Of a stretch of DNA of 64,000 bases, positions 1 through 63,226 are shown in pieces. The translations under genes were made by a program, and so were the position numbers. Numbering within the stretch: position 1 is the stretch's first letter; each line of letters opens with the position of its first letter. A model generated the notes under the pieces. The model ran no database searches. It saw nothing but the letters and a program-made list of their open reading frames with translations, and had not been told where the DNA came from. The stretch is from a virus. Lineage: Duplodnaviria > Caudoviricetes. The stretch is from the IMG/VR virus record IMGVR_UViG_2773857666_000003, positions 7,870-71,869 of that record. One strand, given 5' to 3'.

Positions 1-1
1 G

Positions 2-190: not shown

Positions 191-984
191 GGGATGACGA
201 ATACCCTCGTAGCAGGCAGGCGGCTCGCGAAGCCGGGTTGGAGTTCTACTACACCGGATATGTTTGCTCACATGGCCATCAAACCAAGCGGACTTTGAGC
301 GGTGCATGTTACGGGTGCATCCATGATCCTGACATGATGGCGGCGAAGAACGCACGAAGGCGGGAGCGTATCGCTACAGATCCCGAACACCGCGAGCGCG
401 AAAACCAGAGGAACCGTGACAGGTGGCAGTCACCTGCTTATCGCGAGCAATGCGCTAGACGGACCAGGGAGCGTTACAACAACGATCCAGAATACCGCAC
501 TGCTGTGCGATCTTACCACCAGGCATATCTGGACAAGAACCCTGAAAAACGGGAAGCGTTAAACGCGCGCCAGCGTGAAGCATACGCGAAAAATCCCGAA
601 CCGGTCCTGGCTCGCACCTCACAATGGGCAAAGGAAAACCGTGAACGCAAGAATGCGGCGTGGAAAAGATACGTTGGCAAAAAGAATGATGCGTCCCCAC
701 AATGGTTGACCGATCGACAGTGGGAGGAAATCGATCGGTTGTACGACCTAGCGGTTGATATGAGCACCTTTTCCGGTGAACTTCACACCGTCGATCACAT
801 TATCCCACTCCGGGGTCGAACTGTTTGCGGTCTTCATGTACCTTGGAATCTTCGCATCCTGAGTCAGTCGGAAAACTCGAAGAAGAGTAACAAGCTGCCG
901 CCACCCGAAGACTGGTTAGCACCGACTGAGGCGAACGGTCAGCGCAGCGGCGCGGATGACTTCGATCTACTCCTGGCAGCCTGA
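187..984 (+). CDS. HNH endonuclease with N-terminal Cys/His zinc-binding motif
   Basis: HTVDHIIPLRGRTVCGLHVPWNLRILSQSENSKKSN HNH motif; N-terminal YYTGYVCSHGH..R....CYGC. Confidence 0.9.
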   Translation: MRDDEYPRSRQAAREAGLEFYYTGYVCSHGHQTKRTLSGACYGCIHDPDMMAAKNARRRERIATDPEHRERENQRNRDRWQSPAYREQCARRTRERYNNDPEYRTAVRSYHQAYLDKNPEKREALNARQREAYAKNPEPVLARTSQWAKENRERKNAAWKRYVGKKNDASPQWLTDRQWEEIDRLYDLAVDMSTFSGELHTVDHIIPLRGRTVCGLHVPWNLRILSQSENSKKSNKLPPPEDWLAPTEANGQRSGADDFDLLLAA

Positions 985-991
985 AATAATT

Positions 992-1067
992 TCAACCCGC
1001 TGTTGACAAACCCTCAACCGACCTGCTACAGAATCACGCACTAGTTGCATATCCACGTGTTACGTGA
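992..1067 (+). promoter_or_regulatory. Promoter for head genes with array of 15-bp operator-like boxes
   Basis: TTGACA at 1003-1008 and GCTACAG at 1025-1031; boxes at 992 (TCAACCCGCTGTTGA), 1034 (TCACGCACTAGTTGC), 1053 (CCACGTGTTACGTGA). Confidence 0.6.
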
Positions 1068-1080
1068 TAACTCACGTGGC

Positions 1081-1305
1081 ATGGCAACCCTTGCTGAACG
1101 TCTCGTAGAGGCTGAAAACGCGTATCACGATCTTCAGATCGGGAAATCCGCGCGCGTCTATGTCGACAGTAACGGGGAGCGCATTGAGTACACGGCAGCC
1201 AACCGCGCCGAACTCCAGAAATATATTCAGTCACTGAAAGCTGAGATCGCAGCAGAAGCCGGCACCCCGCTGCCGAGCGGCCCGATGAGGCCGTTCCTGC
1301 TGTGA
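1081..1305 (+). CDS. Head-tail joining protein (lambda gpW-like)
   Basis: AENAYHDLQIGKSARVYVDSNGERIEYTAANRAELQKYI is gpW-like; directly upstream of portal. Confidence 0.85.
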   Translation: MATLAERLVEAENAYHDLQIGKSARVYVDSNGERIEYTAANRAELQKYIQSLKAEIAAEAGTPLPSGPMRPFLL

Positions 1306-3023
1306 CGGATGACTTCGACGCCCTGCTGAGCGATGGTCTCCCCCTGCCGTCGCGCACCGCAGCGCCCGGCGGTTCGGTGACGGTCCCCGCCGCGCCGTCG
1401 GGCGATATGGCGATGGGTGCCTTCGAAGGCGCTGATCGGCTGAACAGCCAGATCGCGCTGTGGTCGCCGCCGGTCCAGTCGGTAGATGCCGACATCCTTC
1501 CGGAAAAGCAGACGGTGGACGCGCGCTCGCGCGACATGATGCGGAACGACGCCTTCGTGCAAGGCGGCGGCAATCTGCACAAAGACAATATCGTCGGTGC
1601 CCATTACCTGCTCAACGCGCGTCCGGCGTCGAAGACGATCTTCGGCAAGCAGGACGATAAGTGGGAAGAGGAGTTTCAGGAGGAAGTCGAGGAGAAGTGG
1701 GAACTCTACTCCGACTCCCCTGACTGCTGGGTCGACGCGGCCCGGATGAACAATTTCACGGCGCACGTCCGCATGGCGGTCGGCATCCACCTGATGGCAG
1801 GCGAGATGCTGGCAACCGTTGAGTGGGTGCGCGACGACGGGGCACCGTTCAACACGGCCATCCAGATGATCGAACTCGATCGTCTCAGCACCCGGCTCGA
1901 TGATCCGTCGTCGATGATGGACCCGAATGTCCGCGGCGGCGTGCGTTTCAACGCTCGCGGTGCGCCGACGGCTTACCAGATCCGCACCTACCAGTTGAAC
2001 GACTACGGCCCCCTACCCTTCCAGATGCCAACCTGGAAGGAAGTGGAAGCCCGTAAGCCGTGGGGCCGGCAGCAGGTCATTCACTTGTTCGAGAGCATTC
2101 GCCCCGAGCAGACGCGCGGCATCACTGAGATGGCCGCCGCGCTGAAGGCGATGAAGATCACGCACACCTGGCGCGACATCAATGTGCAGCACGCGCTGAC
2201 GCAGGCGATGTATGCCGCGGCGATCACCTCCGACCTGCCGAGCGAACAGGTTTTCGCACAGCTTGGCGGTGGCGCAGCAACACCCGATGCCGTGTCGGCA
2301 GCCATCACCAACTATGCGGAAGGTTACCTGTCGAGCATCGCCAGTTACGTCGGTAACGCGCGCGGCCTGCAGATCGATAACGTTAAAATCCCGCATCTTT
2401 TCCCGGGCACCAAGCTGGATCTGCTGTCGCCGGGCAAAGGTGGTCCGCTCGGCACGGAGTTCGAGCAGTCGCTGCTGCGGTACATCGCTTCGGCGATGGG
2501 CGTGTCCTACGAACAGCTCAGCCGCGACTACACCAAGACGAACTACTCGTCGGCCCGCGCAGCGATGAACGAAACCTGGAAGTTCATGCAGTCGCGCAAG
2601 AAGATGATCGCCGATCGCTTCGCGTCGATCGTTTACAGGCTCTGGCTGGAAGAGGCTATCAACAAGGGTGAAATCACGTCGCTGCCGCGCGGAGCTGCCG
2701 GGCTGCTGTACACCAGTGGGCGGCTGAACCTGAAGTTCGATGCGATCAGCCGCTGTGACTGGATCGGCGCCTCGCGCGGGCAGATCGACGAGTACAAGGA
2801 AACGCAGGCCGCGGTGCTGCGCATCAACTCGGGGCTGTCCACCGCTGAGGACGAACTGGCCCGTCTGGGTAAGGACTGGCGCTCCGTCTACCGCCAGCTT
2901 CGCCGTGAAGCCGAGATGCGCAAGGCGCTCGGTCTCATCTTCACGCCGTCGGAACTCACCGAGCAAGAAGCCGCACTCATGGCCTCCGACAACGACTCCA
3001 ACCAACAGGATGAGGCCGCATGA
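1302..3023 (+). CDS. Portal protein, lambda family
   Basis: RSRDMMRND, RPEQTRG, YEQLSRDYTKTNYSSARA and IDEYKE motifs of lambda-type portals. Confidence 0.95.
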   Translation: MTDDFDALLSDGLPLPSRTAAPGGSVTVPAAPSGDMAMGAFEGADRLNSQIALWSPPVQSVDADILPEKQTVDARSRDMMRNDAFVQGGGNLHKDNIVGAHYLLNARPASKTIFGKQDDKWEEEFQEEVEEKWELYSDSPDCWVDAARMNNFTAHVRMAVGIHLMAGEMLATVEWVRDDGAPFNTAIQMIELDRLSTRLDDPSSMMDPNVRGGVRFNARGAPTAYQIRTYQLNDYGPLPFQMPTWKEVEARKPWGRQQVIHLFESIRPEQTRGITEMAAALKAMKITHTWRDINVQHALTQAMYAAAITSDLPSEQVFAQLGGGAATPDAVSAAITNYAEGYLSSIASYVGNARGLQIDNVKIPHLFPGTKLDLLSPGKGGPLGTEFEQSLLRYIASAMGVSYEQLSRDYTKTNYSSARAAMNETWKFMQSRKKMIADRFASIVYRLWLEEAINKGEITSLPRGAAGLLYTSGRLNLKFDAISRCDWIGASRGQIDEYKETQAAVLRINSGLSTAEDELARLGKDWRSVYRQLRREAEMRKALGLIFTPSELTEQEAALMASDNDSNQQDEAA

Positions 3024-4342: not shown

Positions 4343-4357
4343 GCCGGAGAACCGAAC

Positions 4358-4822: not shown

Positions 4823-4850
4823 CCCGCAGCCATAGACAAGGAGTCAAGAG

Positions 4851-5936: not shown

Positions 5937-5943
5937 GCCCTCG

Positions 5944-5971
5944 TTGGCGGGGCCGAACTGCGCCCCGCCAA
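5944..5971 (+). terminator. Stem-loop after major capsid gene
   Basis: TTGGCGGGGC-N8-GCCCCGCCAA perfect 10-bp stem; no clear U tract. Confidence 0.6.
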
Positions 5972-5989
5972 TCAACTAATAGGTGACCA

Positions 5990-33551: not shown

Positions 33552-34205
33552 TCACAACTCGTCGAAATCGTCCACCAGTAGCGAGTCGAAGTCGTCACCT
33601 GCGGCTCTAAACTTCTGCGTCTCGTTACCCCAGACCGACCAGCCCGGCCGTTCTGTGCGCGCAAACAGTTCAACATGAGGACCGGCCGCAAGCCGCTCTA
33701 GGCGTTCATAGCGCTCATCGGGCTTGCGGCTGTGCTCACGCTTCGGCGCATATATCACCTGCTCCTCGGCCTCGATGAGCTGGCGGACACCGGCATCCAG
33801 GCGGCTCGGCCACCCGCGGCTGAACAACAGGCCATATTCCACCTGCTTCCGCACCCACTTTCCCATGCCGATCGGTCGCACCGCTGAGTCGTTCTTGCCG
33901 GTCTTCACCCACACGAGACCGTCGGACTTGAACGTGAAGCCCCAAGTCCGTCCGAGTTCGATGGCCTGGTCGAGGTGGCTGCCAATCACCCACATATGCA
34001 GCAGGCAATCTTTCGCCGCGATATCGGCGACCGGCAGCGCCTTCATATCATCGAGCGTCATCACCGGGTAAGGTGCCTCGGCTGTCCGATGCGGTGCAGC
34101 GCCTTTCCCTGAGAAATTAACCCACGACCAAGCCGGATCAGCCTCTATGACGCCGAAGTGGTTGCGCGGAAGACCTGCGAACGGTCCAGCTTCGATGAGC
34201 GTCAC
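33552..34205 (-). CDS. MT-A70 family adenine methyltransferase
   Basis: ADPAW catalytic motif, LHMWV, WGF, HSRKP, ELFAR..RPGW..WGNE. Confidence 0.92.
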   Translation of the reverse strand: MTLIEAGPFAGLPRNHFGVIEADPAWSWVNFSGKGAAPHRTAEAPYPVMTLDDMKALPVADIAAKDCLLHMWVIGSHLDQAIELGRTWGFTFKSDGLVWVKTGKNDSAVRPIGMGKWVRKQVEYGLLFSRGWPSRLDAGVRQLIEAEEQVIYAPKREHSRKPDERYERLERLAAGPHVELFARTERPGWSVWGNETQKFRAAGDDFDSLLVDDFDEL

Positions 34206-34540
34206 AGGAAATCCTCAAAATCGTCAGCAGGGCGGGGGAGGGGTGTCGCAGCGATCGCCTCTTCAATGTCGACCTGGCGCGGGTCTGTGGTAGCCTCGGT
34301 CACTACCGCCGGCGCATCCTCGTCGAACAACACCGTGCGGCCGTTGGCGCCGGTTGCCCGGAGACGCAGCGCCACCGTGAGCGCTTCGATGGGGTCTGGA
34401 GCCGTGTGGCAGGTCCATGCGCCGCCGATTGCGTTCTCGCTGACGTTGGCCTGGAAGAACCCGCCTTTCGTCTGCCAGAGGTGGATGCGGACATTGTCCT
34501 GGTCAGCGAGCTGCCGGATGTAGGTTTCGAGGCTGCTCAC
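34202..34540 (-). CDS. Hypothetical protein with C-terminal DDFEDFL tail
   Basis: Coupled ORF chain. Confidence 0.7.
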   Translation of the reverse strand: MSSLETYIRQLADQDNVRIHLWQTKGGFFQANVSENAIGGAWTCHTAPDPIEALTVALRLRATGANGRTVLFDEDAPAVVTEATTDPRQVDIEEAIAATPLPRPADDFEDFL

Positions 34541-34542: not shown

Positions 34543-34803
34543 TCAGAGCATCCCGAGGGCCGCTTTGTAGGTGTCGAGCAGGGCTTCGGCTTCCTGCCGC
34601 GCGTGCATCTCCATCTTCCGCAACCGGACGATCGAGCGCATCGTCTTCACATCGTAGCCATTTGCCTTGGCTTCCAGGTAGACGTCCCTAATGTCGTCGC
34701 TGATCCCCTTCTTCTCTTCCTCCAAGCGCTCAATACGCTCCAGAAAGAGGCGCAACTGCTCAGCCGCAACGTTACCCTCAGAATTATGTCCAATACCGCT
34801 CAT
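34543..34803 (-). CDS. gapR: DUF2312 / GapR-like DNA-binding protein
   Basis: GHNS...[40 protein letters not shown]...[11 protein letters not shown]. Confidence 0.9.
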
Positions 34804-36324: not shown

Positions 36325-36648
36325 TCAAAGGCCGAGCGCGCTTCGAATTTTCTGGCGGGCATCAGCAGCACCGTGGCTGAAGCCGATGGTGCGTTCAGAA
36401 TTGAGGTGGCGCAGGATTTCGTAAGCCGCTTGGGGCGACAGGATGCCGTCGAACACCTTCACACCGCCAGGTTTGCATTCCCATCGACCGTTCTGAAGCA
36501 CCGCTGGCGAAATGTGACTGCGCGGCCGCTCGTCGTTGCTCGTCATCAAGCGCCAGAACGAGTCGCGCTCCCCCGCCGCAGCGAAGAAATAACAGGTCCA
36601 GCCTTCATGCGGTCCCGGTTCACTGTGTAGAACGGTGACATCCATCAC
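36325..36648 (-). CDS. Hypothetical protein
   Basis: Coupled ORF chain. Confidence 0.6.
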   Translation of the reverse strand: MMDVTVLHSEPGPHEGWTCYFFAAAGERDSFWRLMTSNDERPRSHISPAVLQNGRWECKPGGVKVFDGILSPQAAYEILRHLNSERTIGFSHGAADARQKIRSALGL

Positions 36649-37049
36649 AGAAACTCCTCAAAATCGTCAGACATCAGCGTGTCGAAATCATCGTCAGCAG
36701 CCGGGGCAGGGGAGGGGTTAGCCGCCCCGAGCATCCGTGCGACGCACTGGTCGGCTTCCGGAAAGGTGCGATCACACTTGCGATAGGCGTCGATCACGGA
36801 ATCCAGTGGCGTCTTGCCCGTGCCTTCCGCTAACTTGAAGGTCAGCGACCCGCCTTGACGTGACGGCTTGACCTCGAACACGACGGTCGCATAGGGACCG
36901 CGCTTCCCCTGACGCTCTGTCCGGTCGAACGCGAATCCGCGCCGCCCGCAGAGCCTGTGGAAGTCACGCCACCCGTCCAGCTTGCGGATAGCCTCGACTT
37001 CGGGGTCGCTTCGCCAAAGCACTTCAGGTGACCGAATGTATGGTTGCAT
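36645..37049 (-). CDS. Hypothetical protein with double DDF tail
   Basis: Ends ADDDFDTLMSDDFEEFL. Confidence 0.7.
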   Translation of the reverse strand: MQPYIRSPEVLWRSDPEVEAIRKLDGWRDFHRLCGRRGFAFDRTERQGKRGPYATVVFEVKPSRQGGSLTFKLAEGTGKTPLDSVIDAYRKCDRTFPEADQCVARMLGAANPSPAPAADDDFDTLMSDDFEEFL

Positions 37050-49862: not shown

Positions 49863-50066
49863 TCACAAACTATCAAAATCATCCACCAACGCGGCAACCG
49901 GTTTCCCGCCACGCCATGACCGCGTCAACACGGTCTGACAGTCGCAGCAGCCGCCGGTTGACGTATATCGTTCGCCGGCATGGCCGCGGCGGCATGGTTC
50001 GCCTATGTATCGCCGGCTTTCGGTTTCGATTGCCTGGCGTCGCGCTGGATGCATCTGGCGCGGCAT
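49863..50066 (-). CDS. Stand-alone Cys/His zinc-binding protein related to the HNH N-termini
   Basis: YIGEPCRRGHAGERYTSTGGCCDC; ends LVDDFDSL. Confidence 0.7.
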   Translation of the reverse strand: MPRQMHPARRQAIETESRRYIGEPCRRGHAGERYTSTGGCCDCQTVLTRSWRGGKPVAALVDDFDSL

Positions 50067-50242
50067 TAGAAACCGCATTCCCGCATAAATTCGCCATGAT
50101 CGAATTGGCACGTTGCCGCGATATCGGTTGCGGCTAGGCGCAAGGCTGCCAACGCGGCGGCACGTTCCTTTTCAGTGCGGCGGCCGATAGCCGTTGCCAT
50201 GCGCGAACGGTTGAACGCTGCTGCGATCGATTCCCGGTTCAT
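50066..50242 (-). CDS. Small hypothetical protein
   Basis: 58-aa ORF read by hand ending FDHGEFMRECGF. Confidence 0.55.
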   Translation of the reverse strand: MNRESIAAAFNRSRMATAIGRRTEKERAAALAALRLAATDIAATCQFDHGEFMRECGF

Positions 50243-52664: not shown

Positions 52665-55121
52665 TTAAGTGCGAGAAATATGACCCCGATATCCGCCTCG
52701 ATCGTATGCTCGCTGGCGACCATATTGCGGGAAGTTGGTCAGTCGACCGTCCGCCGCCCAACCCTCAATCTTGCTCATCGCGCGACCGAGCATCTGAGCG
52801 ACCTGCTGGTTGTAGTGACCGCGATCCTTGCGCAGGCACTCGACCCAAATTTCCAGCAGGCAGGTCTCGTTGCGATAGACCGGCTGCCCGTCTGCGCTGA
52901 AGTCGTCATCGAGGTCACCGCTGATGATCGGCTTTTCGAGCCATGCGGCAATCTCACCGGCAAGAGCGTCATCGGCGCTCTCGACGCGAGCGGACTCCTG
53001 TAGCCGTGCGGCAATACCCTGGGCGTCCTCGTCAGTCAGATAGAGCGGAAGCATGCCGTGTGGCTTGGCTTTGCGCATCTGCTTGTAGAGAACCAGCGCC
53101 TCAGCCCACAACTGGTCAACCTCTTCGCCGAGCAGATCAGTGTCGATGGAATCCACCGTGCAGCGGATTGGCCAGAACCGCCGGTTACCGGTGTCGTCCT
53201 TCAGGAACTTGTCGTCATTGGTCGAGCCGATGAAGATGCACTGGCGATGGTATTCCTGCGCCCGTTTCGCGTAGGCGAGGCGAACCTTGTCCGACCGGCG
53301 GCTGACAAACGCTTTGATGTGGCGGACGTCGGCACGCACAAAGCCGCCCAACTCCGGCATTTCCAAAATCCAGGCACCCTGCATGGCCTCAACCATGGCA
53401 CGGGCATCCTCGAAGTCGCCTTCCAGTTCGGCAAACCAGTTTTTGGCCAACACCTGGATGAAGGTCGATTTGCGTTTACCCTGTAGACCCTGGAGGATCA
53501 CGGCGAAATCGAACTTGCAGCCCGGCTCCATGACGCGAGCCACCCCGGCCGTCATCATGACGCGGGCCACGGAACGCGTGTAGGCGTCATCCGGGGCACC
53601 AAGGTAGTCGATGAACAGTCGCTCGACGCGCGGCTTCCCATCCCATGTCAGTTCGGAGAGGTATGACCGGACGGGATGGAAGCCGTTGAGCCTACCGACG
53701 ATGTCGATGGCTGCCCGCAGGTCGCGATCGGGAACCTTGAACCCGTAGCCGCCCTGCGTCTTAGGCGCCTCGATGACGGCGCGGATGGCGTTGTCCTTGT
53801 CCTCGGTCCAGAAGTCACCGTTGATTGGATCGTAGAGGTTCCACGACGGACCTTTGAGCTGACAGAATGGCTTGGCCTGACCCTTGCGCTTTGGATCTTT
53901 GATGCCTGGCTTCCCGTACTGGACGACTTCCTGCTTGAACTCGTTAAAGGCAGGCACGCCACGGGTGCGGATGTCGTTCTCAACAATTAATCTGAGATTG
54001 TGGAGCGTCGGGCGGTAGCCGCCGTCCTCTGTATAGTCGATCAGCGACTTCCAGGGCAGCACCCCATCATCGTCATCCGGCCCGCCGTCCCAATCGTTGT
54101 CGTTTGCCGACGACTCGGCAGCGATGTCATCGAAATCGTCGTGCCCTGCGTCGATATCGTCATCCTCGAGGTCGTCAAACTCATCGGCGAGGCTGGCACG
54201 CTTCACGTCATTGGCAGCCGCCTTCAGCGTAGCCATGCGAATCGGTCGCTTGGTCTTTCCCTTGAACGATTTCCAGACAGCCCGCTGGTCTTTGCCGTCG
54301 AACTTGGTCGACTGCTTGGAAAACTCCTCCCATAGATCGTAACCAGCATCCCCGAACTCGTGCTTCAGCGCCATGCCGACTTCGCGCCACCCGTCACGGT
54401 CTTCGCACCAGTAGTCGAGCGGGAGCAGCGCAAGAATGTCGCGGGCTTCGTCCTCGGTCAGTTCTAGGCGGTTATCGTTCGCCTCGAAATCGTCATCCGG
54501 GTCGGTGGCGGCACCAGCAGCGTCCAGCGCGTCGGCCGGGATCTCCGGAACATCGCCGAACTCGATGGCATCGAAGTCGAACGGACGCTCCCAGCGGTAC
54601 GGCTTGCCGGTGTCCGGATGGATCGACGGCGGCATGGCGACCTGTTTCGGGGCACCGAACAGCTCGATTTCCCAGTCGTGCTTGCGCACCTCGCGACCCT
54701 TCTTCGGGTCGAACACCATCGACCAGCCCTCGCTGCGGGCCAGCTTTTTCGACCGAAACGGGCGATCGGTGACGAAATAGATGTGCCGCGACTCGCCGCC
54801 TGACCCCGAAATGACCGACGGCAGCGCGTCGAACCGGACGTCGGGCAGCAGGCAGCGCAGCGTCTTCCAGGCGGCGGCTGCCTGCTCAGGTTTCCGGATA
54901 TCGAGGTCGAGAACGTGGAGGTAGCCGCCCGCAACTCGCGAAAACTCTCCGAGTCGCACGCCGACGTTGTTGTCAGCCTGAAACCGGCGCTTCAGCGAAT
55001 CGAAGGATGCGACAGGACGTTCCTGCCAGTTGTCGCCAATGGGTCGCTTGTCGCGCGGATGCAGCCAATGAATGGCAAATCCGCCGTCGACGAACGGCTT
55101 TATCGTTTCGAGAAGGCTCAT
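52665..55121 (-). CDS. Primase-helicase (Prim-Pol, PriCT-2, VapE/VirE helicase)
   Basis: NVGVRLG..VLDLD..SGSGG..HIYF..PPSIHPDTG; WREVGMALK; GLQGKRKST, FIGSTN...DDTGNRRFWP. Confidence 0.92.
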   Translation of the reverse strand: MSLLETIKPFVDGGFAIHWLHPRDKRPIGDNWQERPVASFDSLKRRFQADNNVGVRLGEFSRVAGGYLHVLDLDIRKPEQAAAAWKTLRCLLPDVRFDALPSVISGSGGESRHIYFVTDRPFRSKKLARSEGWSMVFDPKKGREVRKHDWEIELFGAPKQVAMPPSIHPDTGKPYRWERPFDFDAIEFGDVPEIPADALDAAGAATDPDDDFEANDNRLELTEDEARDILALLPLDYWCEDRDGWREVGMALKHEFGDAGYDLWEEFSKQSTKFDGKDQRAVWKSFKGKTKRPIRMATLKAAANDVKRASLADEFDDLEDDDIDAGHDDFDDIAAESSANDNDWDGGPDDDDGVLPWKSLIDYTEDGGYRPTLHNLRLIVENDIRTRGVPAFNEFKQEVVQYGKPGIKDPKRKGQAKPFCQLKGPSWNLYDPINGDFWTEDKDNAIRAVIEAPKTQGGYGFKVPDRDLRAAIDIVGRLNGFHPVRSYLSELTWDGKPRVERLFIDYLGAPDDAYTRSVARVMMTAGVARVMEPGCKFDFAVILQGLQGKRKSTFIQVLAKNWFAELEGDFEDARAMVEAMQGAWILEMPELGGFVRADVRHIKAFVSRRSDKVRLAYAKRAQEYHRQCIFIGSTNDDKFLKDDTGNRRFWPIRCTVDSIDTDLLGEEVDQLWAEALVLYKQMRKAKPHGMLPLYLTDEDAQGIAARLQESARVESADDALAGEIAAWLEKPIISGDLDDDFSADGQPVYRNETCLLEIWVECLRKDRGHYNQQVAQMLGRAMSKIEGWAADGRLTNFPQYGRQRAYDRGGYRGHISRT

Positions 55122-55637: not shown

Positions 55638-56225
55638 ATGAGCATCGAAACGCTGCTGCAGGAGAACACTGCCGCTGTTCTGACCCTCGCTGAAGCCATC
55701 AAGGCGCAGACCGCAATCACGGAACGCGTGGTTTTGGGTCAGCAGGCTGCCATCGAGAAGCTGGAAGGCGCCAAGGCTGCCGCGACCGGCACCCGCACTC
55801 GCCGCAAGGCCGGTGACGATGCCCCGTCGACGCCCGCCGCTGAGGATGCGGGAAACGCCGCACCTGCCGACACGGCGTCTGGGGCGGCCGTTGCAAGCAA
55901 TGCATCTGAGCCGAAGACCAATGCGGTTCTCGACGCAGACGGCATGAAGGCGCTGTGTGGCGCGTTCACCAAGGCTGCCGCTGACGATGCCGACCGTGCC
56001 GCGCGCGTTGCTTGGCTCAAGTCCCTGGCGGGCTACTTCTTTCCGAACGGCGATGTCGTCGGCACCGCGGCACTGGTCGCCACGCCCGACAACGCGAAGA
56101 AGGCAGAGTTCTTCATCGAGCGCAAGAAGGCCGGTCTCGATGTCGATTTCGGTGCGGAATACGACTTCGACGGCGACCCGAAGCAGGAAGTGGCTTCGAC
56201 CGGTGGCGGTGACGATTTCGACTGA
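55638..56225 (+). CDS. Ala-rich hypothetical protein of the replication module
   Basis: MSIETLLQENTAAV start; ends GGGDDFD. Confidence 0.75.
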   Translation: MSIETLLQENTAAVLTLAEAIKAQTAITERVVLGQQAAIEKLEGAKAAATGTRTRRKAGDDAPSTPAAEDAGNAAPADTASGAAVASNASEPKTNAVLDADGMKALCGAFTKAAADDADRAARVAWLKSLAGYFFPNGDVVGTAALVATPDNAKKAEFFIERKKAGLDVDFGAEYDFDGDPKQEVASTGGGDDFD

Positions 56226-56782: not shown

Positions 56783-57030
56783 CGGAAACGATCGATTCCC
56801 AAAGCTGGACTGGTCGCGCTCCGTGGGCCGGTAACCCGCTACAGGTCGCGCGCAGGAGGCTGTGCAATCTGCTGTATCCCTCATACGAATGCCAGCAGTG
56901 CGTTGGCCAGGAAGCCCATTGGGGTTGCTACTGCGGCTACCACCTTTGCGTGTCGCCGTGCGTCGGTCCAGGTGCCATCCACCACTGGCTGCGCGGCTTC
57001 GCTGAACGTCATCTCGGGGTTACGCCGTGA
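56779..57030 (+). CDS. Hypothetical Cys-rich protein
   Basis: CQQCVG...GCYC; GTGA overlaps. Confidence 0.55.
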   Translation: MTETIDSQSWTGRAPWAGNPLQVARRRLCNLLYPSYECQQCVGQEAHWGCYCGYHLCVSPCVGPGAIHHWLRGFAERHLGVTP

Positions 57031-58229
57031 CGGCCACCCCAGACCAGCTACCCGCCCACTCAGAATACAGCCCCTCGTCATCCGAAGGCTGGTCGACCTG
57101 TGCCGACTACATCAACGCCAATCGCGGGTTGCCGGACACGACGTCATGGGAAGCTGCGGAAGGCACGGCTGCGCACTGGATTCGCAACGAGTGTCTGATG
57201 AACGGCGAGGATGCCGTCAATTACATCGGCCACATCCAGAAGGTCGAGGAGTGGGAGTTCGAGTGGACGGCTGATGACGCCCGTCTCCTGCAGCCTGGCA
57301 TCGACCGCATCCGGTCATATGATGGCCTGTTCTACGGCGAGCACTGGGTCAATCTGACGACATGGCTCGGAACCGATTCACAGGGTCGCCCGCAAGGTGG
57401 CACCCTGGACGGCGGCATCATCACCGACGACCTAATTTGCGTCGACGACGAAAAATGGGGTCGCGGCGTTCCCGTCAGCCCGATCCGCAACAAGCAGCTT
57501 ATGCTGTATGCACTCGGCTTCTGGGAATCGATCGCCCGTCACAAGACGCAGGCAACTCGTTTCCTGCTGCGGATCGACCAGCCGCGACACCTGGCAGGCG
57601 GCGGCGAGTGGGAAACCAACCTCGACGAACTGCTGGCATTCGGTGAGTGGATCAAGGAGCGCGTCGCCGCCACGAAACAGCCGAACCCGCCGCGCACCGC
57701 CAGCCTCAAAGGCTGCATGTGGTGTCGACGCAAGGAGGCAACCGGCGGCTGCGATACCTACGACGCCTACATGGTGGAAACGCTCGGTCTGGAGTTCGAC
57801 GACTTGGACAACCCGCCACTGCAAATCGAGAAGCCCCTGACCCCGGAGCGCCGCCGCGTGCTGCTCGACCACAGCAGCGCCATCGAGAAGTGGCTGGAAC
57901 GCCTCAGCGACGAGTGCCTGGAAGACTATATGGCGGGGCGCCCAACCGGCGGCCTGAAGGCGATCGACGGCCGCAAGTCGCCGGATGCCTGGATCGACGA
58001 GAAGACGGTTGCTACGCCGATCCTCCAAGGGCTTCTTGGCGACCGCAGTTTCACGTCTAAATTGATTACACCGACGCAAGCGTGTAAGAACTTCAACCTT
58101 GATGATTTCGACCTTCTCCTCCTCGCACCGCACATCAAACGTGGCCAGCGAAAGCCGACCCTGGTGCCAGAGGAAGTAGACCGGCCCGCACTGACGCGCG
58201 CCAACGAGTTCGACGATCTCGATTCTTAA
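57027..58229 (+). CDS. DUF2800 Cas4-like/PD-(D/E)xK exonuclease
   Basis: HSEYSPSS..W..C, AAEGTAAH, GTLD, DEKWGRG, NKQLMLYALG, CMWC. Confidence 0.85.
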   Translation: MTATPDQLPAHSEYSPSSSEGWSTCADYINANRGLPDTTSWEAAEGTAAHWIRNECLMNGEDAVNYIGHIQKVEEWEFEWTADDARLLQPGIDRIRSYDGLFYGEHWVNLTTWLGTDSQGRPQGGTLDGGIITDDLICVDDEKWGRGVPVSPIRNKQLMLYALGFWESIARHKTQATRFLLRIDQPRHLAGGGEWETNLDELLAFGEWIKERVAATKQPNPPRTASLKGCMWCRRKEATGGCDTYDAYMVETLGLEFDDLDNPPLQIEKPLTPERRRVLLDHSSAIEKWLERLSDECLEDYMAGRPTGGLKAIDGRKSPDAWIDEKTVATPILQGLLGDRSFTSKLITPTQACKNFNLDDFDLLLLAPHIKRGQRKPTLVPEEVDRPALTRANEFDDLDS

Positions 58230-58260
58230 AACCGTCACCTGCAACCGAGGAAACCCGTAA

Positions 58261-58965
58261 ATGGCTACCAATAACAAGTTCGTTCGGACTTACGATGACG
58301 ATGCCCGTGTCGTCATGCTGAAAGGCGTCCGGCTGTCGTTCTCCGAGTCCCTGAAGGACAAGAAGGCGACCGTGGAAGACGGTGAACCGAAGCACAGCAG
58401 CAACATCATCATCGAAGCCGATCAGCCAGGCTTCGAGGAGAAGAAGCAGGCCATCGTCGCCGCGATGAAGGCTGCCTGTGAAAAGGCGAAGAAGCCTGCC
58501 GATTACTTCAAGGTGATCGCTGAAGATGCCCCGAAACGCGTCTCTTACCGCAAGGGTGAGCGCTTCAAGAACAAGGATGGCGTCGTCTATGAAGGCTACG
58601 CGGGCAATATGGCGATATCGGCTTCCGGGCCGAAGCGCGGCCAGCAGCGTCCTACCCTGTTCTCTCGCAACAAGCGCAAACTGGGTGCACCCGGCCAGGA
58701 AGGCTGCTTCACGGTCGATGATATCCCTGAGATCTTCTACGGCGGCACCTACAGCGACGTGAAGGTGTCGTTTTACTACACCGATAAGGGTGGCGACGGC
58801 CTCTTCGCTACCATCGAGAGCATCCGGTCGCTGGAGACCGGCGAACGCATGGCCGGCGGCGGCATCACGACCACGGCTGACGAGTACGACGATGCCGATG
58901 ACGACGATGGCTTCGACGGCGGTGCCGGTGGCTCGTCTTCGTCGAAGGGCGACGACTTCGACTGA
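58261..58965 (+). CDS. DUF2815 single-stranded DNA-binding protein (T7 gp2.5-like)
   Basis: VRLSF, FYGG, GERMAGG, acidic tail ending DDFD; between DUF2800 and polymerase. Confidence 0.85.
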   Translation: MATNNKFVRTYDDDARVVMLKGVRLSFSESLKDKKATVEDGEPKHSSNIIIEADQPGFEEKKQAIVAAMKAACEKAKKPADYFKVIAEDAPKRVSYRKGERFKNKDGVVYEGYAGNMAISASGPKRGQQRPTLFSRNKRKLGAPGQEGCFTVDDIPEIFYGGTYSDVKVSFYYTDKGGDGLFATIESIRSLETGERMAGGGITTTADEYDDADDDDGFDGGAGGSSSSKGDDFD

Positions 58966-59033: not shown

Positions 59034-60953
59034 GTGTCAGATCAGAAGCCAGACGTGCTCGCGGACATCGAAATCTATCACGACTTCGCCTATTTCGCGT
59101 TCGAGCGCGTATCCGATGGCAAGAAGATCGGCATCGAGGTTTCTCGTCGCACGGATCGCGCCGAAGACGACGCCAAGCGTGACAAGGTTCGCGGCATCCT
59201 GCTGCGCAACAGGATCATCACCTTCAACGGCCAGTCCTACGACGCCCCGCTGCTCTGGTACTTCGTCTTCGGCGCCACCAATGCGCAGCTAAAGAAGGCC
59301 AGTGACCGCATCATCCTGGGGAACGTCCGTTACTGGGAAGTCGAGGATCTGCTGCAAATCCAAATCCCGCGCAGCTTCACTCATATCGATATGATCGAGC
59401 CGCAACCAAACGCCTTCGCGTCGCTGAAGACGCTGAACGGCCGTTTACACGGCAAGCGGATGCAGGATCTGCCGGTGGAGCCTGATGCCAGGCTCACCGA
59501 CGGGGAAATGGACGGTCTGATCGACTACTGCGCGAACAGCGACATACCGGCATCGCGTCGGCTGCTGGATGCCTTGGTCGAACCTCTCGCGATGCGGGAA
59601 GCGCTGTCGAAGGAGTACGGCGTCAACTTCATGTCGAAGTCGGACAGCCAGATCGGCGAAGGCATCATCAAGAAGCGCGTCGAGCAGGCAACTGGTTCCA
59701 GAGTCACCCGGATCGACACACCCGCGGGCACGTCGTTCCCTTACAAGATGCCCGATTGGCTGCGTTTCGAGACGCCACAGTTGCAGGCGATCCTCGACCG
59801 GCTGCGGGATACCGAGTTCTACGTCAAATCTGACGGCAAGGTGGAGATGCCGAAGTGGCTGTCCGACGCTAACCTGACGATCGGCGACACAACTTACGCG
59901 ATGGGCATCGGCGGGCTACACTCCACCGAGTCGAACCGGGCCGTCCACAGCGATGAGGACCACCAGCTTCGAGATTTTGACGTCGCGAGCTACTACCCGG
60001 CCATCATTCTCGGCTCCGGCTTGTATCCGAAGTCGCTTGGCCCGTCATTCCTCGACGTTTACCGGAAGATCCGTGAAGACCGCATCGTCGCCAAGCGCGC
60101 CGGCAACAAGGTCGTCGATATGGGCCTCAAGATTGCGCTCAACGGCGTATTCGGGAAGCTCGGCAGCCGCTATTCCATCCTCTACGCCCCACACCTGCTG
60201 ATCACGGTCACCCTCACCGGGCAGCTCGCCCTGCTGATGCTGATCGAGCGCGCCGAGCAAGCCGGCATCCCGGTTGTGTCGGGCAACACCGACGGCGTCG
60301 TCTTCCGTTTCCAGCGCGACCGCGAAGACGAGCTGCTGGCGATCACGAAGCAGTGGGAGGCTGAGACCGGTTTCGAGTTGGAGGCAACCGATTACGAGTC
60401 GCTCTACAACCTGTCGGTCAACACCTACATCGCCGTGAAGCCAGACGGAAAGGTCAAGCGCAAGGGCACCCTCAGCAACCCGTGGCGGGAAAAAGACATC
60501 CGCGGCATGCTGATGAAGAACCCAAACGCGGTCATCTGCTCCGATGCCGTGGTCGAGTTGATCGTCAACGGGACACCGATCGAAGAAACGATACGCGGCT
60601 GCACGGATATCCGCGACTTCGTGACCGTGGTGAACGTCAAGGGTGGCGGCACCTGGCGCGACGGGTATCTCGGGAAGGTAGTCAGATATTACTGGGCACG
60701 CGGCGGCGAGGAAATCTTCTACAAGACGCCGCACGAGCGCACCGGCAACTTCAAGAAAGTGCCGCGGACGGACGGCTGCCGGCCACTGATGGACCTGCCT
60801 GACGAGTTGCCGGCTAACATCGACTACGACCGGTATATCGCCGAGGCCAACGAGATCCTGATGGATATCGGCTACACGGAGCGGCCGCCAGTGGTGAAGC
60901 CCATCCGGCTGTTTAAGTATAACGCCGTGGCGTATTTCGCGCTGGCGGTATGA
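59034..60953 (+). CDS. DNA polymerase, family B
   Basis: DIE and FNG..YD exonuclease motifs; DVASYYP, KIALNGVFGK, NTDG. Confidence 0.92.
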   Translation: MSDQKPDVLADIEIYHDFAYFAFERVSDGKKIGIEVSRRTDRAEDDAKRDKVRGILLRNRIITFNGQSYDAPLLWYFVFGATNAQLKKASDRIILGNVRYWEVEDLLQIQIPRSFTHIDMIEPQPNAFASLKTLNGRLHGKRMQDLPVEPDARLTDGEMDGLIDYCANSDIPASRRLLDALVEPLAMREALSKEYGVNFMSKSDSQIGEGIIKKRVEQATGSRVTRIDTPAGTSFPYKMPDWLRFETPQLQAILDRLRDTEFYVKSDGKVEMPKWLSDANLTIGDTTYAMGIGGLHSTESNRAVHSDEDHQLRDFDVASYYPAIILGSGLYPKSLGPSFLDVYRKIREDRIVAKRAGNKVVDMGLKIALNGVFGKLGSRYSILYAPHLLITVTLTGQLALLMLIERAEQAGIPVVSGNTDGVVFRFQRDREDELLAITKQWEAETGFELEATDYESLYNLSVNTYIAVKPDGKVKRKGTLSNPWREKDIRGMLMKNPNAVICSDAVVELIVNGTPIEETIRGCTDIRDFVTVVNVKGGGTWRDGYLGKVVRYYWARGGEEIFYKTPHERTGNFKKVPRTDGCRPLMDLPDELPANIDYDRYIAEANEILMDIGYTERPPVVKPIRLFKYNAVAYFALAV

Positions 60954-61225
60954 AAACGACGGTCGTCCATAAACGGAACCGACATGATGTTTATATCGGT
61001 CGACCGAGCAAATGGGGAAATCCGTTTGCGATCGGGCGTGATGGCGATCGTGACGAGGTGATTGCGAAGTATCGCTTGTGGATTGTCCGCCAACCGGCCC
61101 TACTGGCGGCACTACCTGAATTGCGCGGACTGAGGCTCGGTTGCTTCTGCGCACCCTTGGCCTGCCACGGTCACGTTCTAGCCGAACTCGCAGACGCTGT
61201 GGACGATTTCGAGCATCTTCTGTGA
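60950..61225 (+). CDS. DUF4326 family protein
   Basis: DVYIGRPSKWGNPF...LGCFCAPLACHGHVL. Confidence 0.88.
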   Translation: MKTTVVHKRNRHDVYIGRPSKWGNPFAIGRDGDRDEVIAKYRLWIVRQPALLAALPELRGLRLGCFCAPLACHGHVLAELADAVDDFEHLL

Positions 61226-62823
61226 TCCTGCCACCACGCGACGCGCTATACGCCAGCATCGCGGCGGGAACCTGGCCGAACATCGCCCCGTTCACCCCGG
61301 TCCCACTCGACCCGGATCTGTTCGACCCCGGCCTGCACTGGTGGCAGTATGACCTGCTATGCGACGTCGCCGCGCTGTTCCGCGCCGGGTATCGCCGCGT
61401 CCTGCTGCAGTGTCCCACCGGCGGCGGAAAGACGGTCATGGCGCTATCGGCGCTCATGTCAGCCCGTCGCCAAGGGTTGAATGCTCAGTTCCTCGTCCAC
61501 CGTAAGGAGCTGCTGAAGCAGACCAGCAAGACATTCACATCAGCCGCACTCGACCACAGCTTCGTCGCGGCTGACTTCCCGTTCGATCCTGGAGCCGGGC
61601 TGCTACTGTCCGGTGTCCAGACGCTAATCAAGCGCACCCGGTTGATCCTGCCGCCGGTGCTCGTCATCATCGACGAGGCGCATCATGCCGTGTCGAACAC
61701 CTACGCGCAGATCCTCGAACAGTGGCCGGATGCCTTCCTCCTTCTGCTGACCGCCACCCCGGAGCGATTGGACGGCCGCGGGTTGGAGGAACATGCTGAC
61801 GCGATGGTGCACGGCCCGCAGCCGCGGTGGCTGATCGACAACGGTTACCTGTCTGACTTCGATCTGTACGCACCCGACATTCCGGATTTCACCGGCGTCC
61901 CGTCCACCGGCGGCGAGTACCAGCCTGACGCGGCGGCTGCGGTCATGAACAAGCCGAAGCTCGTCGGCAACGTGGTCGAGCACTACCTGGAATTGGCCAA
62001 CGGCGTCCAGGGCATCGTGTTCGGCCAGAATGTCGAGCACAGCCGGAAGCTGGCCGAGGCGTTCAACGCCTATGGCATCCCCGCGATGCATGTCGACGGC
62101 AAGACCGGTACCAAGGAGCGAGACTATTTCGATGACGCGTTTCGGGCCGGCGACATTCGAATCGGGTGCAACTGTGATCTCTTCGCCGAAGGCTACGACG
62201 TACCGAACATCGGCTATCTCGGCGACGCCGGTCGATCGAAGTCGCGCATCAAGGTCAAGCAGCGACACGGCCGCCCGATACGGTACGTGCCAGGCAAGCG
62301 GGCGGTCATCTGCGACCATGCGGGCAACGCGCTGCCGCCTTGGCTCGGTGGCCAGGGTCACGGCTTGCCAGATGAGGACTACATCTATTCCCTGACCGGT
62401 CGTTCGAAGAAGGCGACCACGAACGCAGGTCAGGACGCCACATCGATCACGCAATGCCTGTCCTGCTTCCGCGTCTACCCGTCTTCAGCATCGCAGTGCC
62501 CCGGTTGCGCCGCCGATCGCCCGCTGCAACCCCGCGTCGTGCGCGAGGTCGCTGGCAAGCTGTCGAAGGTCGAGCGCGAGGCGATGCAGCGCGCGAAGAC
62601 GGCAACGCGGAAGGCCGAGGAATCTGCCTGCGAGACCTACGACGAGTTCGTCTCGCTCGGGAAGGCGCGCGGCTACGAGTTCCCGGCGCAGTGGGCGAAA
62701 CGGCAGTGCAAGTTCCGCCGCATCCCCATCACCTCCGACGGTGACTGGTATCGCGAGTACGACGGCGCCAGCGACTACGACGATGTCGACACCCCTACCC
62801 CGCGAGTGAGTGACTATGACTGA
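61222..62823 (+). CDS. Superfamily 2 DEAH helicase with zinc finger
   Basis: PTGGGKT, DEAHH, TATP, EGYDVP, C..C/C..C. Confidence 0.92.
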   Translation: MILPPRDALYASIAAGTWPNIAPFTPVPLDPDLFDPGLHWWQYDLLCDVAALFRAGYRRVLLQCPTGGGKTVMALSALMSARRQGLNAQFLVHRKELLKQTSKTFTSAALDHSFVAADFPFDPGAGLLLSGVQTLIKRTRLILPPVLVIIDEAHHAVSNTYAQILEQWPDAFLLLLTATPERLDGRGLEEHADAMVHGPQPRWLIDNGYLSDFDLYAPDIPDFTGVPSTGGEYQPDAAAAVMNKPKLVGNVVEHYLELANGVQGIVFGQNVEHSRKLAEAFNAYGIPAMHVDGKTGTKERDYFDDAFRAGDIRIGCNCDLFAEGYDVPNIGYLGDAGRSKSRIKVKQRHGRPIRYVPGKRAVICDHAGNALPPWLGGQGHGLPDEDYIYSLTGRSKKATTNAGQDATSITQCLSCFRVYPSSASQCPGCAADRPLQPRVVREVAGKLSKVEREAMQRAKTATRKAEESACETYDEFVSLGKARGYEFPAQWAKRQCKFRRIPITSDGDWYREYDGASDYDDVDTPTPRVSDYD

Positions 62824-63226
62824 CGATTTCGACAGCCTGCTACCGGCGCCATCTTCCGAGAAGAAAATTCTGAACGATATATTGATCGAGGTTTCCGCGC
62901 TGCCTAGAACAATGGTGTACCGTCAAAATACGGGCCAGGCGTGGCAGGGGCGGCCCTGTGATGTGCCGGTGGGGGAATATATCAAAGTGTTACCGGGAAT
63001 GAAGATCCTCGCTGAGGCGCGTCCTATATCGTTTGGGCTACTCGGCGCAGGTGACGCAGTCGGATCAACTAACGGTAGACCGTTACAAATTGAGACAAAA
63101 ACACTTACTGGTAGACAGCGTGAGGTCCAGGTGGCGTTCGGGAGAGCGTGGGAAAAGGCCGGGGGTATCTATCTTTTGGCACGGTCAGTTGACGAATGCC
63201 TATCCAAAATAGCAGTCAGTCAGTAA
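62816..63226 (+). CDS. VRR-NUC domain nuclease
   Basis: GAGD....IETKT..GRQREVQ..F....GG.Y..ARS. Confidence 0.8.
   Translation: MTDDFDSLLPAPSSEKKILNDILIEVSALPRTMVYRQNTGQAWQGRPCDVPVGEYIKVLPGMKILAEARPISFGLLGAGDAVGSTNGRPLQIETKTLTGRQREVQVAFGRAWEKAGGIYLLARSVDECLSKIAVSQ

Follow-up and report, generated by a model that had tools for sequence, protein, structure and literature searches.

[quoted passage not shown] The beta-clamp motif and the PIP box likewise bring many DNA enzymes to a single hub by means of one short motif, and clamp-binding motifs are located in C-terminal tails, N-termini or loops (PMC11139829). The tip of bacterial SSB is also an acidic-hydrophobic peptide on a disordered tail that recruits proteins in DNA metabolism. 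The N-terminus of FliM and the C-terminus of CheZ bind CheY, and an N-terminal peptide of ParB stimulates ParA; these peptides combine acidic or small residues with Leu-Leu, and are amphipathic, terminal and directed at one partner surface.

Here, a single short acidic-hydrophobic peptide recurs on 17 proteins of one phage. The window, the 64,000-nucleotide stretch that we analysed, spans bases 7870-71869 of a virus record of 71,869 bp and leaves 7,869 bases ahead of it. Across the six frames of the whole genome the pattern DDF[DE] occurs 21 times, against 0.41 ± 0.62 expected from 100 dinucleotide shuffles (maximum 3). Fifteen of these matches are in the window, all within gene-like ORFs. Eleven window matches lie no more than 12 residues from a stop, two come straight after a start codon (portal gene at 1302 and VRR-NUC-like gene at 62810), two are in the primase-helicase linker and one is in the DUF2800 protein, 38 residues before its end. 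Genome-wide, 18 of the 21 fall in the terminal 15 residues, on 17 of 109 proteins. This corresponds to 18 matches in 3,270 terminal residues versus 3 in 19,054 interior ones (Fisher odds ratio 35, p = 7.9e-13), while shuffling the residues within each protein 1,000 times yielded 0.54 matches in total on average and never more than 4. A control sample of 116 IMG/VR stretches chosen for a DDFDxLL DNA pattern contained 131 DDF[DE] matches, mostly one per stretch, with 11 of them no more than 12 residues from a stop. Every instance listed in the original prediction was recovered in its place, and the enrichment, strong at the termini as had been proposed, exceeds the earlier description. Its figure of about ten carriers was too low: the window has 12 and the whole genome 17 (Table 1). 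The 109 genes and their start codons come from a simple custom caller, the N-terminal tag positions rest in part on the agreement of relatives, and two of the 17 carriers are ORFs added by hand to the gene calls.

Table 1. Tagged proteins of the window and two untagged neighbours (coordinates in the window)
Protein	Position	Strand	Tag	Family match
Endonuclease VII / HNH-like protein	187..984	+	C-terminal, DDFDLLLAA before stop, 955-981	phrog_1035 endonuclease VII, 5.4e-15; no Pfam match
Lambda-family portal protein	1302..3023	+	N-terminal, MTDDFDALL, 1302-1328	PF05136, 2.5e-81
MT-A70 DNA methyltransferase	33552..34205	-	C-terminal, DDFDSLL, 33576-33596, and DDFDEL before stop, 33555-33572	PF05063
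p112 (112 aa)	34202..34540	-	C-terminal, DDFEDFL before stop, 34205-34225	no Pfam or PHROGs match
GapR-like DNA-binding protein (directly upstream of p112 and MT-A70)	34543..34803	-	untagged	PF10073, 2.6e-34
134-aa protein	36645..37049	-	C-terminal, DDFDTLM, 36672-36692, and DDFEEFL before stop, 36648-36668	no Pfam or PHROGs match
Small Cys/His-rich protein (67-82 aa)	49863..50111	-	C-terminal, DDFDSL before stop, 49866-49883	phrog_23777, phrog_1081 (unknown function)
Prim-Pol/PriCT-2/VapE primase-helicase	52665..55121	-	internal, weaker: DDDFE, 54483-54494 (about residue 210, just before PriCT-2); HDDFDDI, 54129-54140 (about residue 328, PriCT-2-VapE linker)	PF09250, PF08707, PF05272
p195 (conserved replication-module member)	55638..56225	+	C-terminal, GDDFD before stop, 56211-56222	no Pfam or PHROGs match
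DUF2800 (Cas4-like) nuclease	57027..58229	+	C-terminal, EFDDLDS before stop, 58206-58226; extra tag-like DDFDLLL, 58101-58121, in a loop variable across the family	PF10926
T7-type SSB (DUF2815/Enc34 ORF6 family)	58261..58965	+	acidic tail end, GDDFD before stop, 58951-58962	PF10991
DNA polymerase	59034..60953	+	untagged	phrog_1252, 3.7e-183
DUF4326 protein	60950..61225	+	C-terminal, DDFEHLL before stop, 61202-61222	PF14216
VRR-NUC-like endonuclease	62810..63226	+	N-terminal, MTDDFDSLL, 62816-62842	phrog_93, phrog_5702

Five more tagged proteins are encoded in the 7,869 bases ahead of the window: the integrase, a C5 methyltransferase with two tag copies, an ORF overprinted inside the C5 methyltransferase gene, the terminase small subunit (tagged at its N-terminus) and a 264-aa protein. 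By Pfam and PHROGs assignments, every identifiable carrier acts on DNA. The motif is absent from all 44 head, tail and lysis gene calls and present in 15 of the 63 others. Two names had to be revised: the regions 187-984 and 62810-63226, predicted to encode HNH and VRR-NUC proteins, matched neither family in Pfam, while PHROGs assigns them to endonuclease VII and to endonuclease/Holliday-junction resolvase.

The motif is read in the coding frame in every case, on both strands, with mixed codons: over the 21 instances the first Asp is GAC 14 times and GAT 7, the second GAT 15 times and GAC 6, and Phe TTC 18 times and TTT 3, so the constraint acts on the peptide. A DNA-level element, or chance composition at the gene boundaries of a GC-rich genome in which GAC and TTC codons are common, is refuted by the shuffle counts and the codon variation; with the peptide conserved where the DNA differs, down to many third-position differences between the copies of the two double tags, its probability is negligible. 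The peptide-level signal at protein termini that had been predicted is thus borne out by the codons, and also by location. The tags lie outside the Pfam domains of MT-A70 (domain 17-195 of 217), DUF4326 (7-79 of 91), the portal (domain from residue 50) and the integrase (domains end at 366 of 405), and on low-confidence or disordered tails in the SSB and MT-A70 models. From its sequence, the motif here is DDF[D/E]x[L/F]L, within a general form of acidic-acidic-hydrophobic-x-acidic/small-L-L/I, often followed by Gly; a broad regular expression gave 11 terminal matches in this genome, all of the DDF type. It has the properties of a short linear motif, being 3-10 residues long, disordered, outside domains, recurrent in unrelated proteins and conserved in orthologues.

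The tag had been described in this phage, but is no peculiarity of it. The phage belongs to a large group of temperate phages of alphaproteobacteria in which orthologous proteins are tagged at matching termini, in a version that differs by genome and is homogeneous within each. As to whether homologues from other phages are without the tail, 94 out of 120 homologues of MT-A70 have the motif at their C-terminal end; among 65 MT-A70 tails with a final Gly, the first hydrophobic position is occupied by F only 27 times, by L 11 times, by V 7 times and by I 5 times. RcGingersnap has DLSDILG in its integrase, MTTDLTDLF in its terminase small subunit and DLSDLLG in its portal; L139-L142, L153 and L157 use DLSDL[IM]G, L146 ends five proteins in LIG, and G007 and G008 are tag-rich as well. 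The cores of the CheY-binding and ParB peptides presumably resemble these versions; the biology is different, the ParB peptide is basic whereas the tag is acidic, and no receiver-domain or ParA-like protein was identified among the phage proteins scanned (part of the proteome). The N-terminal portal tag is kept in every relative checked, the VRR-NUC-like orthologues are tagged at the N-terminus in L124 and G007 and at the C-terminus in L123 and L146, and the primase-helicases of relatives bear complete tags, either within the linker or C-terminally. By BLAST, p112 has a homologue in G007 only; in both G007 and G008 the gene after GapR likewise has an acidic-hydrophobic tail.

A smaller set of tails reaches further. 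The T7-type SSB, DUF2800 nuclease, p195 family and primase-helicase have acidic-aromatic tails even in distant relatives with other hosts and other packaging genes, with ends such as -DDYDLF, -ADDLF and -EEFDPLA, the last at the position of p195. Such tails are kept in 27 DUF2800 homologues and, by tail alignment, in 20 SSB homologues. In G011-G015, acidic-hydrophobic ends are largely limited to two or three replication-module proteins, with a few further ones in G012. The question of whether the tails are independent of the phage lineage thus divides: those of DUF2800, DUF2815 and p195 are family-wide, while tags on integrase, terminase small subunit, portal, methyltransferases and nucleases are, on sequence comparison, confined to the alphaproteobacterial temperate group. 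The predicted kinship with the tails of SSB and gp2.5 is well founded, in that the SSB here is an OB-fold variant of the Enc34 ORF6/gp2.5 type (PF10991 Enc34_ssDNA-bd, E = 6.8e-17). Its AF2 model (mean pLDDT 78.3) matches 5odj (E = 1.8e-10) and 5odl (E = 2.7e-10) in Foldseek, and residues 200-234 form a disordered C-terminal segment (pLDDT below 50).

Compared with the described systems, this one resembles T7 in that at least two replication proteins share an acidic aromatic disordered tail, which in T7 docks on a replisome protein, and in that the SSB is of the same type. T7 however has two tailed carriers, whereas here there are 17, including integrase, terminase small subunit, portal and methyltransferases, and the tag has fixed hydrophobic spacing and also occupies N-termini and linkers, so it would not depend on a free C-terminal carboxylate. 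Bacterial SSB differs in that one peptide meets many pockets; here the many carriers imply one or few. The SSB tip combines an acidic run with a C-terminal aromatic or hydrophobic residue and a free carboxylate, which among the phages compared is seen only in the distant relatives ending in -ADDLF or -DDYDLF, and in a similar form in the phage NP1 helicase (-DLDDDIPF). In this genome SSB and p195 end in -DDFD, in no tail is the acidic run followed immediately by a final Phe, and three carriers are N-terminally tagged.

The peptide looks like an address label, and that it is a docking tag for a common partner is probable. Most likely the motif would form a short amphipathic helix once bound, and all carriers would be docked in trans to the same partner. 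We infer that the system derives from the T7-type arrangement, with SSB and helicase-primase tails binding basic patches of the polymerase. In the wider module family such tails would be confined to SSB, DUF2800 nuclease and p195 family, with the primase-helicase added in some cases. Among the temperate phages of alphaproteobacteria the tail would have been sharpened into a more defined motif, copies of which were later acquired by integrase, terminase small subunit, portal and HNH nuclease, as well as by VRR-NUC, DUF4326, three methyltransferase-region proteins and small proteins. If true, enzymes of replication, modification, recombination and packaging would be gathered at one place on the phage DNA. 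As a whole, this account of in-trans docking, T7-style origin and a co-evolving partner is the best explanation we have, with an even chance of being right.

The tag could instead bind the host beta sliding clamp, with phage DNA enzymes riding host clamps like PIP-box clients. The carriers (nucleases, methyltransferases, primase-helicase, recombinase) resemble clamp and PCNA clients, as does the placement of the tags at disordered termini or loops of DNA-metabolism proteins, and in three genomes that host related prophages MutS has DDLPLF, with an acidic start in place of Gln. The canonical motif, however, is Q-phi-x-[L/M]-[F/L] or Q-phi-x-[L/M]-x-[F/L] (PMC11139829), to which none of the 21 tags conforms with Gln; with D/E for Q and F as phi, two do (DDFDLLL, once in the HNH protein and once in the DUF2800 loop), and in the other 19 two residues separate the hydrophobic positions. 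The polymerase, most in need of a clamp, is untagged, a conserved host pocket would not be expected to select genome-specific versions, and acidic tails occur in module relatives whose hosts span 29-64% GC. No clamp gene was recognised by Pfam/PHROGs on about 40 of the 109 phage proteins. We consider this reading unlikely. A signal for a host AAA+ protease (ClpXP, ClpAP, Lon, FtsH) or its adaptor, keeping the enzymes short-lived, is improbable as well. Tags at either terminus, hydrophobic last residues and flexible exposed tails would suit a degron, and temperate phages have unstable regulators and recombination proteins; but the ssrA-type -LAA ending occurs once in 21 tags (-LLLAA of the HNH-like protein), SSB and portal are needed in quantity and make poor degradation targets, the same motif stands at N-termini and in internal linkers, and the ancestral tails are those of the T7-type SSB system, which uses its tail for binding.

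Each tail might also act within its own protein as a DNA mimic that folds on the DNA-binding surface and sharpens specificity, with no common receptor. Work by Marintcheva et al. reportedly speaks for such a role, and every identifiable carrier binds DNA. Enc34 ORF6 without its acidic tail gained dsDNA binding; in the crystal the tail was placed on a neighbouring molecule's beta-sheet (PMC5686142). In the MT-A70 model the tail has an intermediate pLDDT of 61-66, with a short helix at 206-213 over the tag, which may be compatible with weak folding back onto its own domain. We give this reading little chance: there would be no need for unrelated folds to share one seven-residue sequence and its fixed hydrophobic spacing, or to have a uniform genome-specific version, and the SSB tail is modelled as fully disordered, without docking. 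The phage GapR-like protein, as a DNA-bound landing pad for tagged enzymes, has features in its favour beyond the adjacency seen in Table 1. The order GapR, small tagged protein, larger tagged protein is conserved in G007, where the larger protein is a methyltransferase, and in G008; GapR-like is the only small non-structural protein common to this phage, G007, G008, RcGingersnap and RHph_X2_30; and its homologues are present in 109 phage records whose hosts are almost all alphaproteobacteria, in agreement with the distribution of the expanded tag. Gene order is however no evidence of binding, GapR-positive phages of other types are without terminal enrichment (2 terminal matches in 56 genes of the Caulobacter phage Jess A, 1 in 78 of the Bradyrhizobium phage ppBjS10J-1), and no partner motif of GapR was found reported in a limited survey of the literature, which makes this receptor a decidedly improbable one. 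Targeting to the procapsid (scaffold, protease or portal), for packaging and injection with the DNA, is very improbable: short terminal capsid-targeting signals exist in other phages and the portal tag is universal among the relatives checked, but capsids are not expected to contain terminase small subunit, SSB or primase-helicase, most of the tags are at C-termini, and the ancestral tails sit in the replication module.

For a docking tag with a common partner, the genome-specific versions suggest a receptor that co-evolves with the tags and is therefore probably phage-encoded, although homogeneity within genomes could also reflect recent within-genome spread. The C-terminal pattern gave 12 matches in five host genomes versus 17 in the control and is thus not a host-proteome motif; searches for a candidate receptor in host genomes and by GapR co-occurrence found none. 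By analogy with T7 gp5, the first candidate is the DNA polymerase, which has no tag at either end in any of the 42 relative loci with a polymerase match. That the partner is the polymerase or the replisome is nevertheless doubtful. There is no obvious reason for integrase, terminase small subunit, portal or methyltransferases to bind a polymerase, and provirus G008 is tag-rich with no polymerase module found in its 50.6 kb, in a record that is about 75% complete and ends where the module would lie. Two separate receptors are possible, since in RcGingersnap the replication tails (-DDFDDLD and -SLLDF) are unlike the DLSDLL tags of its integrase, terminase and portal.

Six-frame translation of the whole genome yields 21 DDF[DE] matches, against 0.41 ± 0.62 (maximum 3) in 100 dinucleotide shuffles, and all 21 are in frame with gene-like ORFs, which lie on both strands. 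Every tag instance listed in the original prediction was present in this search. Within our set of 109 proteins (107 own gene calls and two ORFs added by hand), 18 matches fall in the terminal 15 residues (3,270 residues) and 3 in the interior (19,054 residues; Fisher odds ratio 35, p = 7.9e-13), and 1,000 within-protein shuffles gave a mean of 0.54 matches with a maximum of 4, which bears out the terminal enrichment that the prediction had anticipated. It had counted about ten carriers; the sharing of the tag among unrelated proteins holds, but the carriers number 17, of which 12 are in the window and five upstream of it (the integrase, a C5 methyltransferase, an ORF overprinted within that gene, the terminase small subunit and a 264-aa protein). 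Each motif position is encoded by a mixture of synonymous codons, and the double tags of the C5 methyltransferase and of MT-A70 are near-identical as peptides and differ at third positions; the constraint therefore acts on the peptide, as had been proposed. As a control, 116 IMG/VR stretches chosen solely for a DDFDxLL-coding DNA pattern contained 131 DDF[DE] matches, 11 of them within 12 residues of a stop and mostly one per stretch. This search, which mostly returned a single interior match each, also led to two tag-rich relatives, G007 and the provirus G008.

The carriers with a recognisable family all act on DNA: the integrase, two methyltransferases, the terminase small subunit, the portal, an endonuclease VII / HNH-like protein, the primase-helicase, the DUF2800 nuclease, the T7-type SSB, DUF4326 and the VRR-NUC-like nuclease. 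The motif was not found in the 44 gene calls of the block of head, tail, lysis and neighbouring genes (9,733 residues) and occurs in 15 of the remaining 63. In every checkable case the tag lies outside the limits of the Pfam domain, often preceded by a linker rich in Pro, Ala, Gly or Ser. The SSB tail (residues 200-234) is modelled as disordered by AlphaFold2 (pLDDT below 50), and residues 206-213 of MT-A70, which cover its first tag, as a short helix.

Several other termini deserve mention. Only the terminase-adjacent copy of the two phrog_1035 genes is tagged. The ResIII/SNF2-type helicase, which is outside the 17, has an acidic Tyr-containing tail, SDYDDVDTPTPRVSDYD, that may be a degenerate form of the tag. 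The large terminase lacks a DDF-type tag; its C-terminus and those of its homologues in L003, L006, L128 and L139-L142 (among these ends, GLDSLGELLA in L128 and GLNALAELAKKLA) resemble the tag versions of other lineages, and TerL itself may carry a related peptide.

The virus record is 71,869 bp long; the window is its bases 7870-71869 and has a GC content of about 61%. The genome opens with genes for a P4-type tyrosine integrase and an AlpA-like protein. The C5 methyltransferase comes next, ahead of the terminase small subunit (DUF1441 / phrog_141), a large terminase of GpA type and a lambda-family portal. After these are head and tail genes, an early operon that runs leftward, and a replication module (Prim-Pol/VapE primase-helicase, the small protein p195, DUF2800, DUF2815 SSB, DNA polymerase, DUF4326, helicase and VRR-NUC-like nuclease). 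No near-identical phage was found in the phage collection: megablast gave no match for window 1-20000, and the matches for window 42000-64000 were about 85 nt long and confined to the primase gene. By polymerase, the named relatives closest to this phage are the RcGingersnap-type phages of Rhodobacter capsulatus (about 52% identity) and Rhizobium phage RHph_X2_30 (44.5%), together with prophages of Sphingomonas (70%), Sphingopyxis, Gemmobacter, Mesorhizobium, Bosea and others. The MT-A70 homologues that bear source names are from Novosphingobium, and the host is therefore likely a sphingomonad. In a Plastorhodobacter prophage (L133) the polymerase match is 2.7 kb long, compared with about 1.9-2.0 kb elsewhere, and the tblastn match ends at residue 368, which suggests an interruption by an insertion such as an intein or homing gene.

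The key result comes from these relatives. Orthologues keep the tag at the same terminus, in a sequence that varies by lineage and is uniform within a genome. In RcGingersnap, DLSDILG is found on the integrase, MTTDLTDLF on the terminase small subunit, DLSDLLG on the portal, DLSDLF on a methylase and DLSDLFQ at the end of a small protein. Six further loci (L139-L142, L153, L157) have DLSDL[IM]G on the terminase small subunit and portal, and an integrase ending in LLEGLL (LLDGLL in L139). In L146, LIG ends the integrase, C5 methyltransferase, overprinted ORF, primase-helicase and VRR-NUC; in L124 the primase-helicase ends in MLIG and the SSB in DDFDIG. In the complete 73-kb genome G007, VRR-NUC, the terminase small subunit, the portal (GDSFDELLGG), a methylase and others bear tags of DDFDxLLG type; in G008 (50.6 kb, about 75% complete) the integrase, the terminase small subunit, the portal and three of the early proteins bear tags of D[DA]F[AS]DLL type. 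A broad regular expression gave 11 terminal matches in the present genome, all DDF-type. Among 120 MT-A70 homologues (57-98% identity), the last nine residues contain a hydrophobic-x-x-hydrophobic-hydrophobic pattern in 94, and 48 have at least two copies of the pattern in the tail. The 65 that end in Gly have the consensus D-[D/P/E]-[F/L]-x-[D/E/A]-[L/M]-[L/I]-G, with Phe at the first hydrophobic position in only 27. The tag thus characterises a large group of phages, and the suggestion that it is particular to this phage is not supported.

Part of the system seems older still. Five distant relatives (IMG/VR records G011-G015; 92-100% complete, GC 29% to 64%) combine the same polymerase module with different packaging genes, and a GpA-type terminase was not found in them. 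Their acidic-hydrophobic ends are largely confined to replication-module proteins: DUF2800 (DDYDLF, SDFEKLI), SSB (ADDLF, EDWI), the protein at the p195 position (EEFDPLA) and, once, the primase-helicase; G012 has a few more. The C-terminal EFDDLD of DUF2800 is family-wide. An atlas search with p195 gave unnamed clusters only, below 0.9. Pseudomonas phage NP1 was tried as an outgroup and replaced by these five genomes; the module order of NP1 differs (first 50 kb scanned). Its DNA helicase ends in DLDDDIPF, which we take to be the canonical bacterial SSB tip, and appears to carry an SSB-tail look-alike. DUF2815 belongs to the T7-type SSBs and has a tail that is acidic and unstructured; the tail of T7 gp2.5 is implicated in binding polymerase and primase-helicase (PMC5686142). 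The T7 polymerase gp5 carries two basic patches bound by the acidic tails of the helicase-primase gp4 (PMC12593628). We read the replication-module tails as an ancestral T7-like tail system. The alphaproteobacterial temperate lineage would have extended it, the motif gaining a Leu-Leu(-Gly) part and spreading to the integrase, to packaging proteins and to methyltransferases and nucleases, at N-termini as well.

What the tag might bind was approached from both the phage and the host. The DNA polymerase carries no tag, either in this phage or in the 42 relative loci with a polymerase match. In five host genomes of related prophages, D-phi-x-D-phi-phi-G gave 54 matches against 11 in the control; the 30 places read were mainly interior or alternative-frame matches or prophage genes, including a terminase small subunit and primase-helicase linkers. 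N-terminal host matches were two, a beta-carbonic anhydrase and an HlyD-family protein, and one YccV-like protein matched near its C-terminus. With a stop codon required after a C-terminal pattern, the same genomes gave 12 matches against 17 in the control, and no set of host proteins with a terminal tag emerged from them. Binding to the host clamp is one alternative: host MutS, with DDLPLF, and one DinB ending in QATLPL both fit the canonical clamp-binding forms given in PMC11139829; only 2 of 21 phage instances match these forms, even with a relaxed rule.

The tag could also act as a protease signal, as a capsid-targeting signal or through intramolecular DNA mimicry; AlphaFold2 models bearing on intramolecular docking have low confidence in the SSB tail and intermediate confidence in that of MT-A70 (pLDDT 61-66, 109 sequences). 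A GapR-like protein is another candidate for the receptor or hub. Its gene lies directly upstream of the tagged p112 (a small protein without a Pfam or PHROG match) and MT-A70, a suggestive order also seen in G007 and G008, and its product is the only small non-structural protein common to all five compared genomes; two GapR-positive phages of other types, however, have no tag enrichment. The gene next to the GapR-like one encodes a protein that weakly matches sigma-70 region 2 and may be a sigma-like factor of the phage.

The address-tag reading of the original prediction is the best available, with the qualification that the tag belongs to a wide phage group and is in part an old family-wide feature of the replication module. 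The tag is probably a docking motif that works in trans, its carriers sharing one partner. That this partner is phage-encoded is possible, at a little under even confidence, and that it is the polymerase or replisome we consider doubtful. More speculative, and on balance unlikely, is a full scheme in which a family of temperate alphaproteobacterial phages tags its proteome for one DNA-bound phage hub (polymerase/replisome or GapR-like). A zip-code peptide at one terminus would mark about one protein in six, among them the integrase, the terminase small subunit, the portal, methyltransferases, nucleases, the SSB and the primase-helicase, and tag and hub would have co-evolved per lineage, leaving co-resident phages without cross-talk. 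Such a system would amount to a viral counterpart of the PCNA / PIP-box network, and would extend the two-protein paradigm of T7 tails to a whole proteome, if one peptide addresses all. Replication, modification, recombination, integration and packaging enzymes would then meet at a single factory through a simple portable tag, which could serve as a handle for finding the hub by peptide pull-down and for bringing cargo to phage DNA. A DNA-related function could be predicted from the tag alone for uncharacterised small phage proteins such as p112, p134, p195 and p264, and the genome-specific versions offer a natural experiment on motif-receptor co-evolution. Our literature search, at title and abstract level, found no published description of a proteome-wide phage tag, in line with what had been stated at the outset.

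Coordinates of the features discussed (L001, whole-genome record; L133, Plastorhodobacter prophage; L222, phage NP1)
Feature	Location	Strand	Remarks
C5 methyltransferase gene	L001:2217-4190		upstream of window
Overprinted ORF	L001:2530-3036	+	168 aa; outside window; ends in EDDFDCLL
Large terminase	L001:5855-8059		last codons at window 1-190; ends in ALSDLGGSLA
Endonuclease VII / HNH-like (phrog_1035)	window 187-984	+	tagged
Block of 44 gene calls	window 3020-33031		0 motifs
Rv2179c-like 3'-5' exoribonuclease domain protein	window 26085-26624	-	E 1.6e-41
MT-A70	window 33552-34205	-	tagged
p112	window 34202-34540	-	tagged
GapR-like gene (PF10073)	window 34543-34803	-	E 2.6e-34
Putative sigma-like protein	window 34819-35340	-	173 aa; E 6.3e-06
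YspA/SLOG-family protein	window 41273-41665	-	E 4.6e-21
Endonuclease VII / HNH-like (phrog_1035)	window 51274-52041	-	ends in LGLAAAA
ResIII/SNF2-type helicase	window 61222-62823	+	
Polymerase match	L133:9673-12386		
NP1 DNA helicase	L222:36601-38376	-	

Two further proteins with family matches, the Rv2179c-like and the YspA/SLOG-family protein, lie among the early genes. An ncRNA associated with DUF2815 has been reported upstream of such SSB genes (2026 preprint); no Rfam family reached the gathering score in the window, 58230-58260 included, and this RNA was therefore not detected.

The ORF overprinted in the C5 methyltransferase gene lies wholly within it, in another frame, and has its own terminal tag. 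In each of four relatives (L126, L133, L146, L155) the same stretch of DNA yields protein matches in both frames, at 38-61% identity for the methyltransferase and 47-66% for the overprinted ORF, which looks like a conserved overprinted gene and ends in the genome's own tag version in three of the four (L126, L133, L146).
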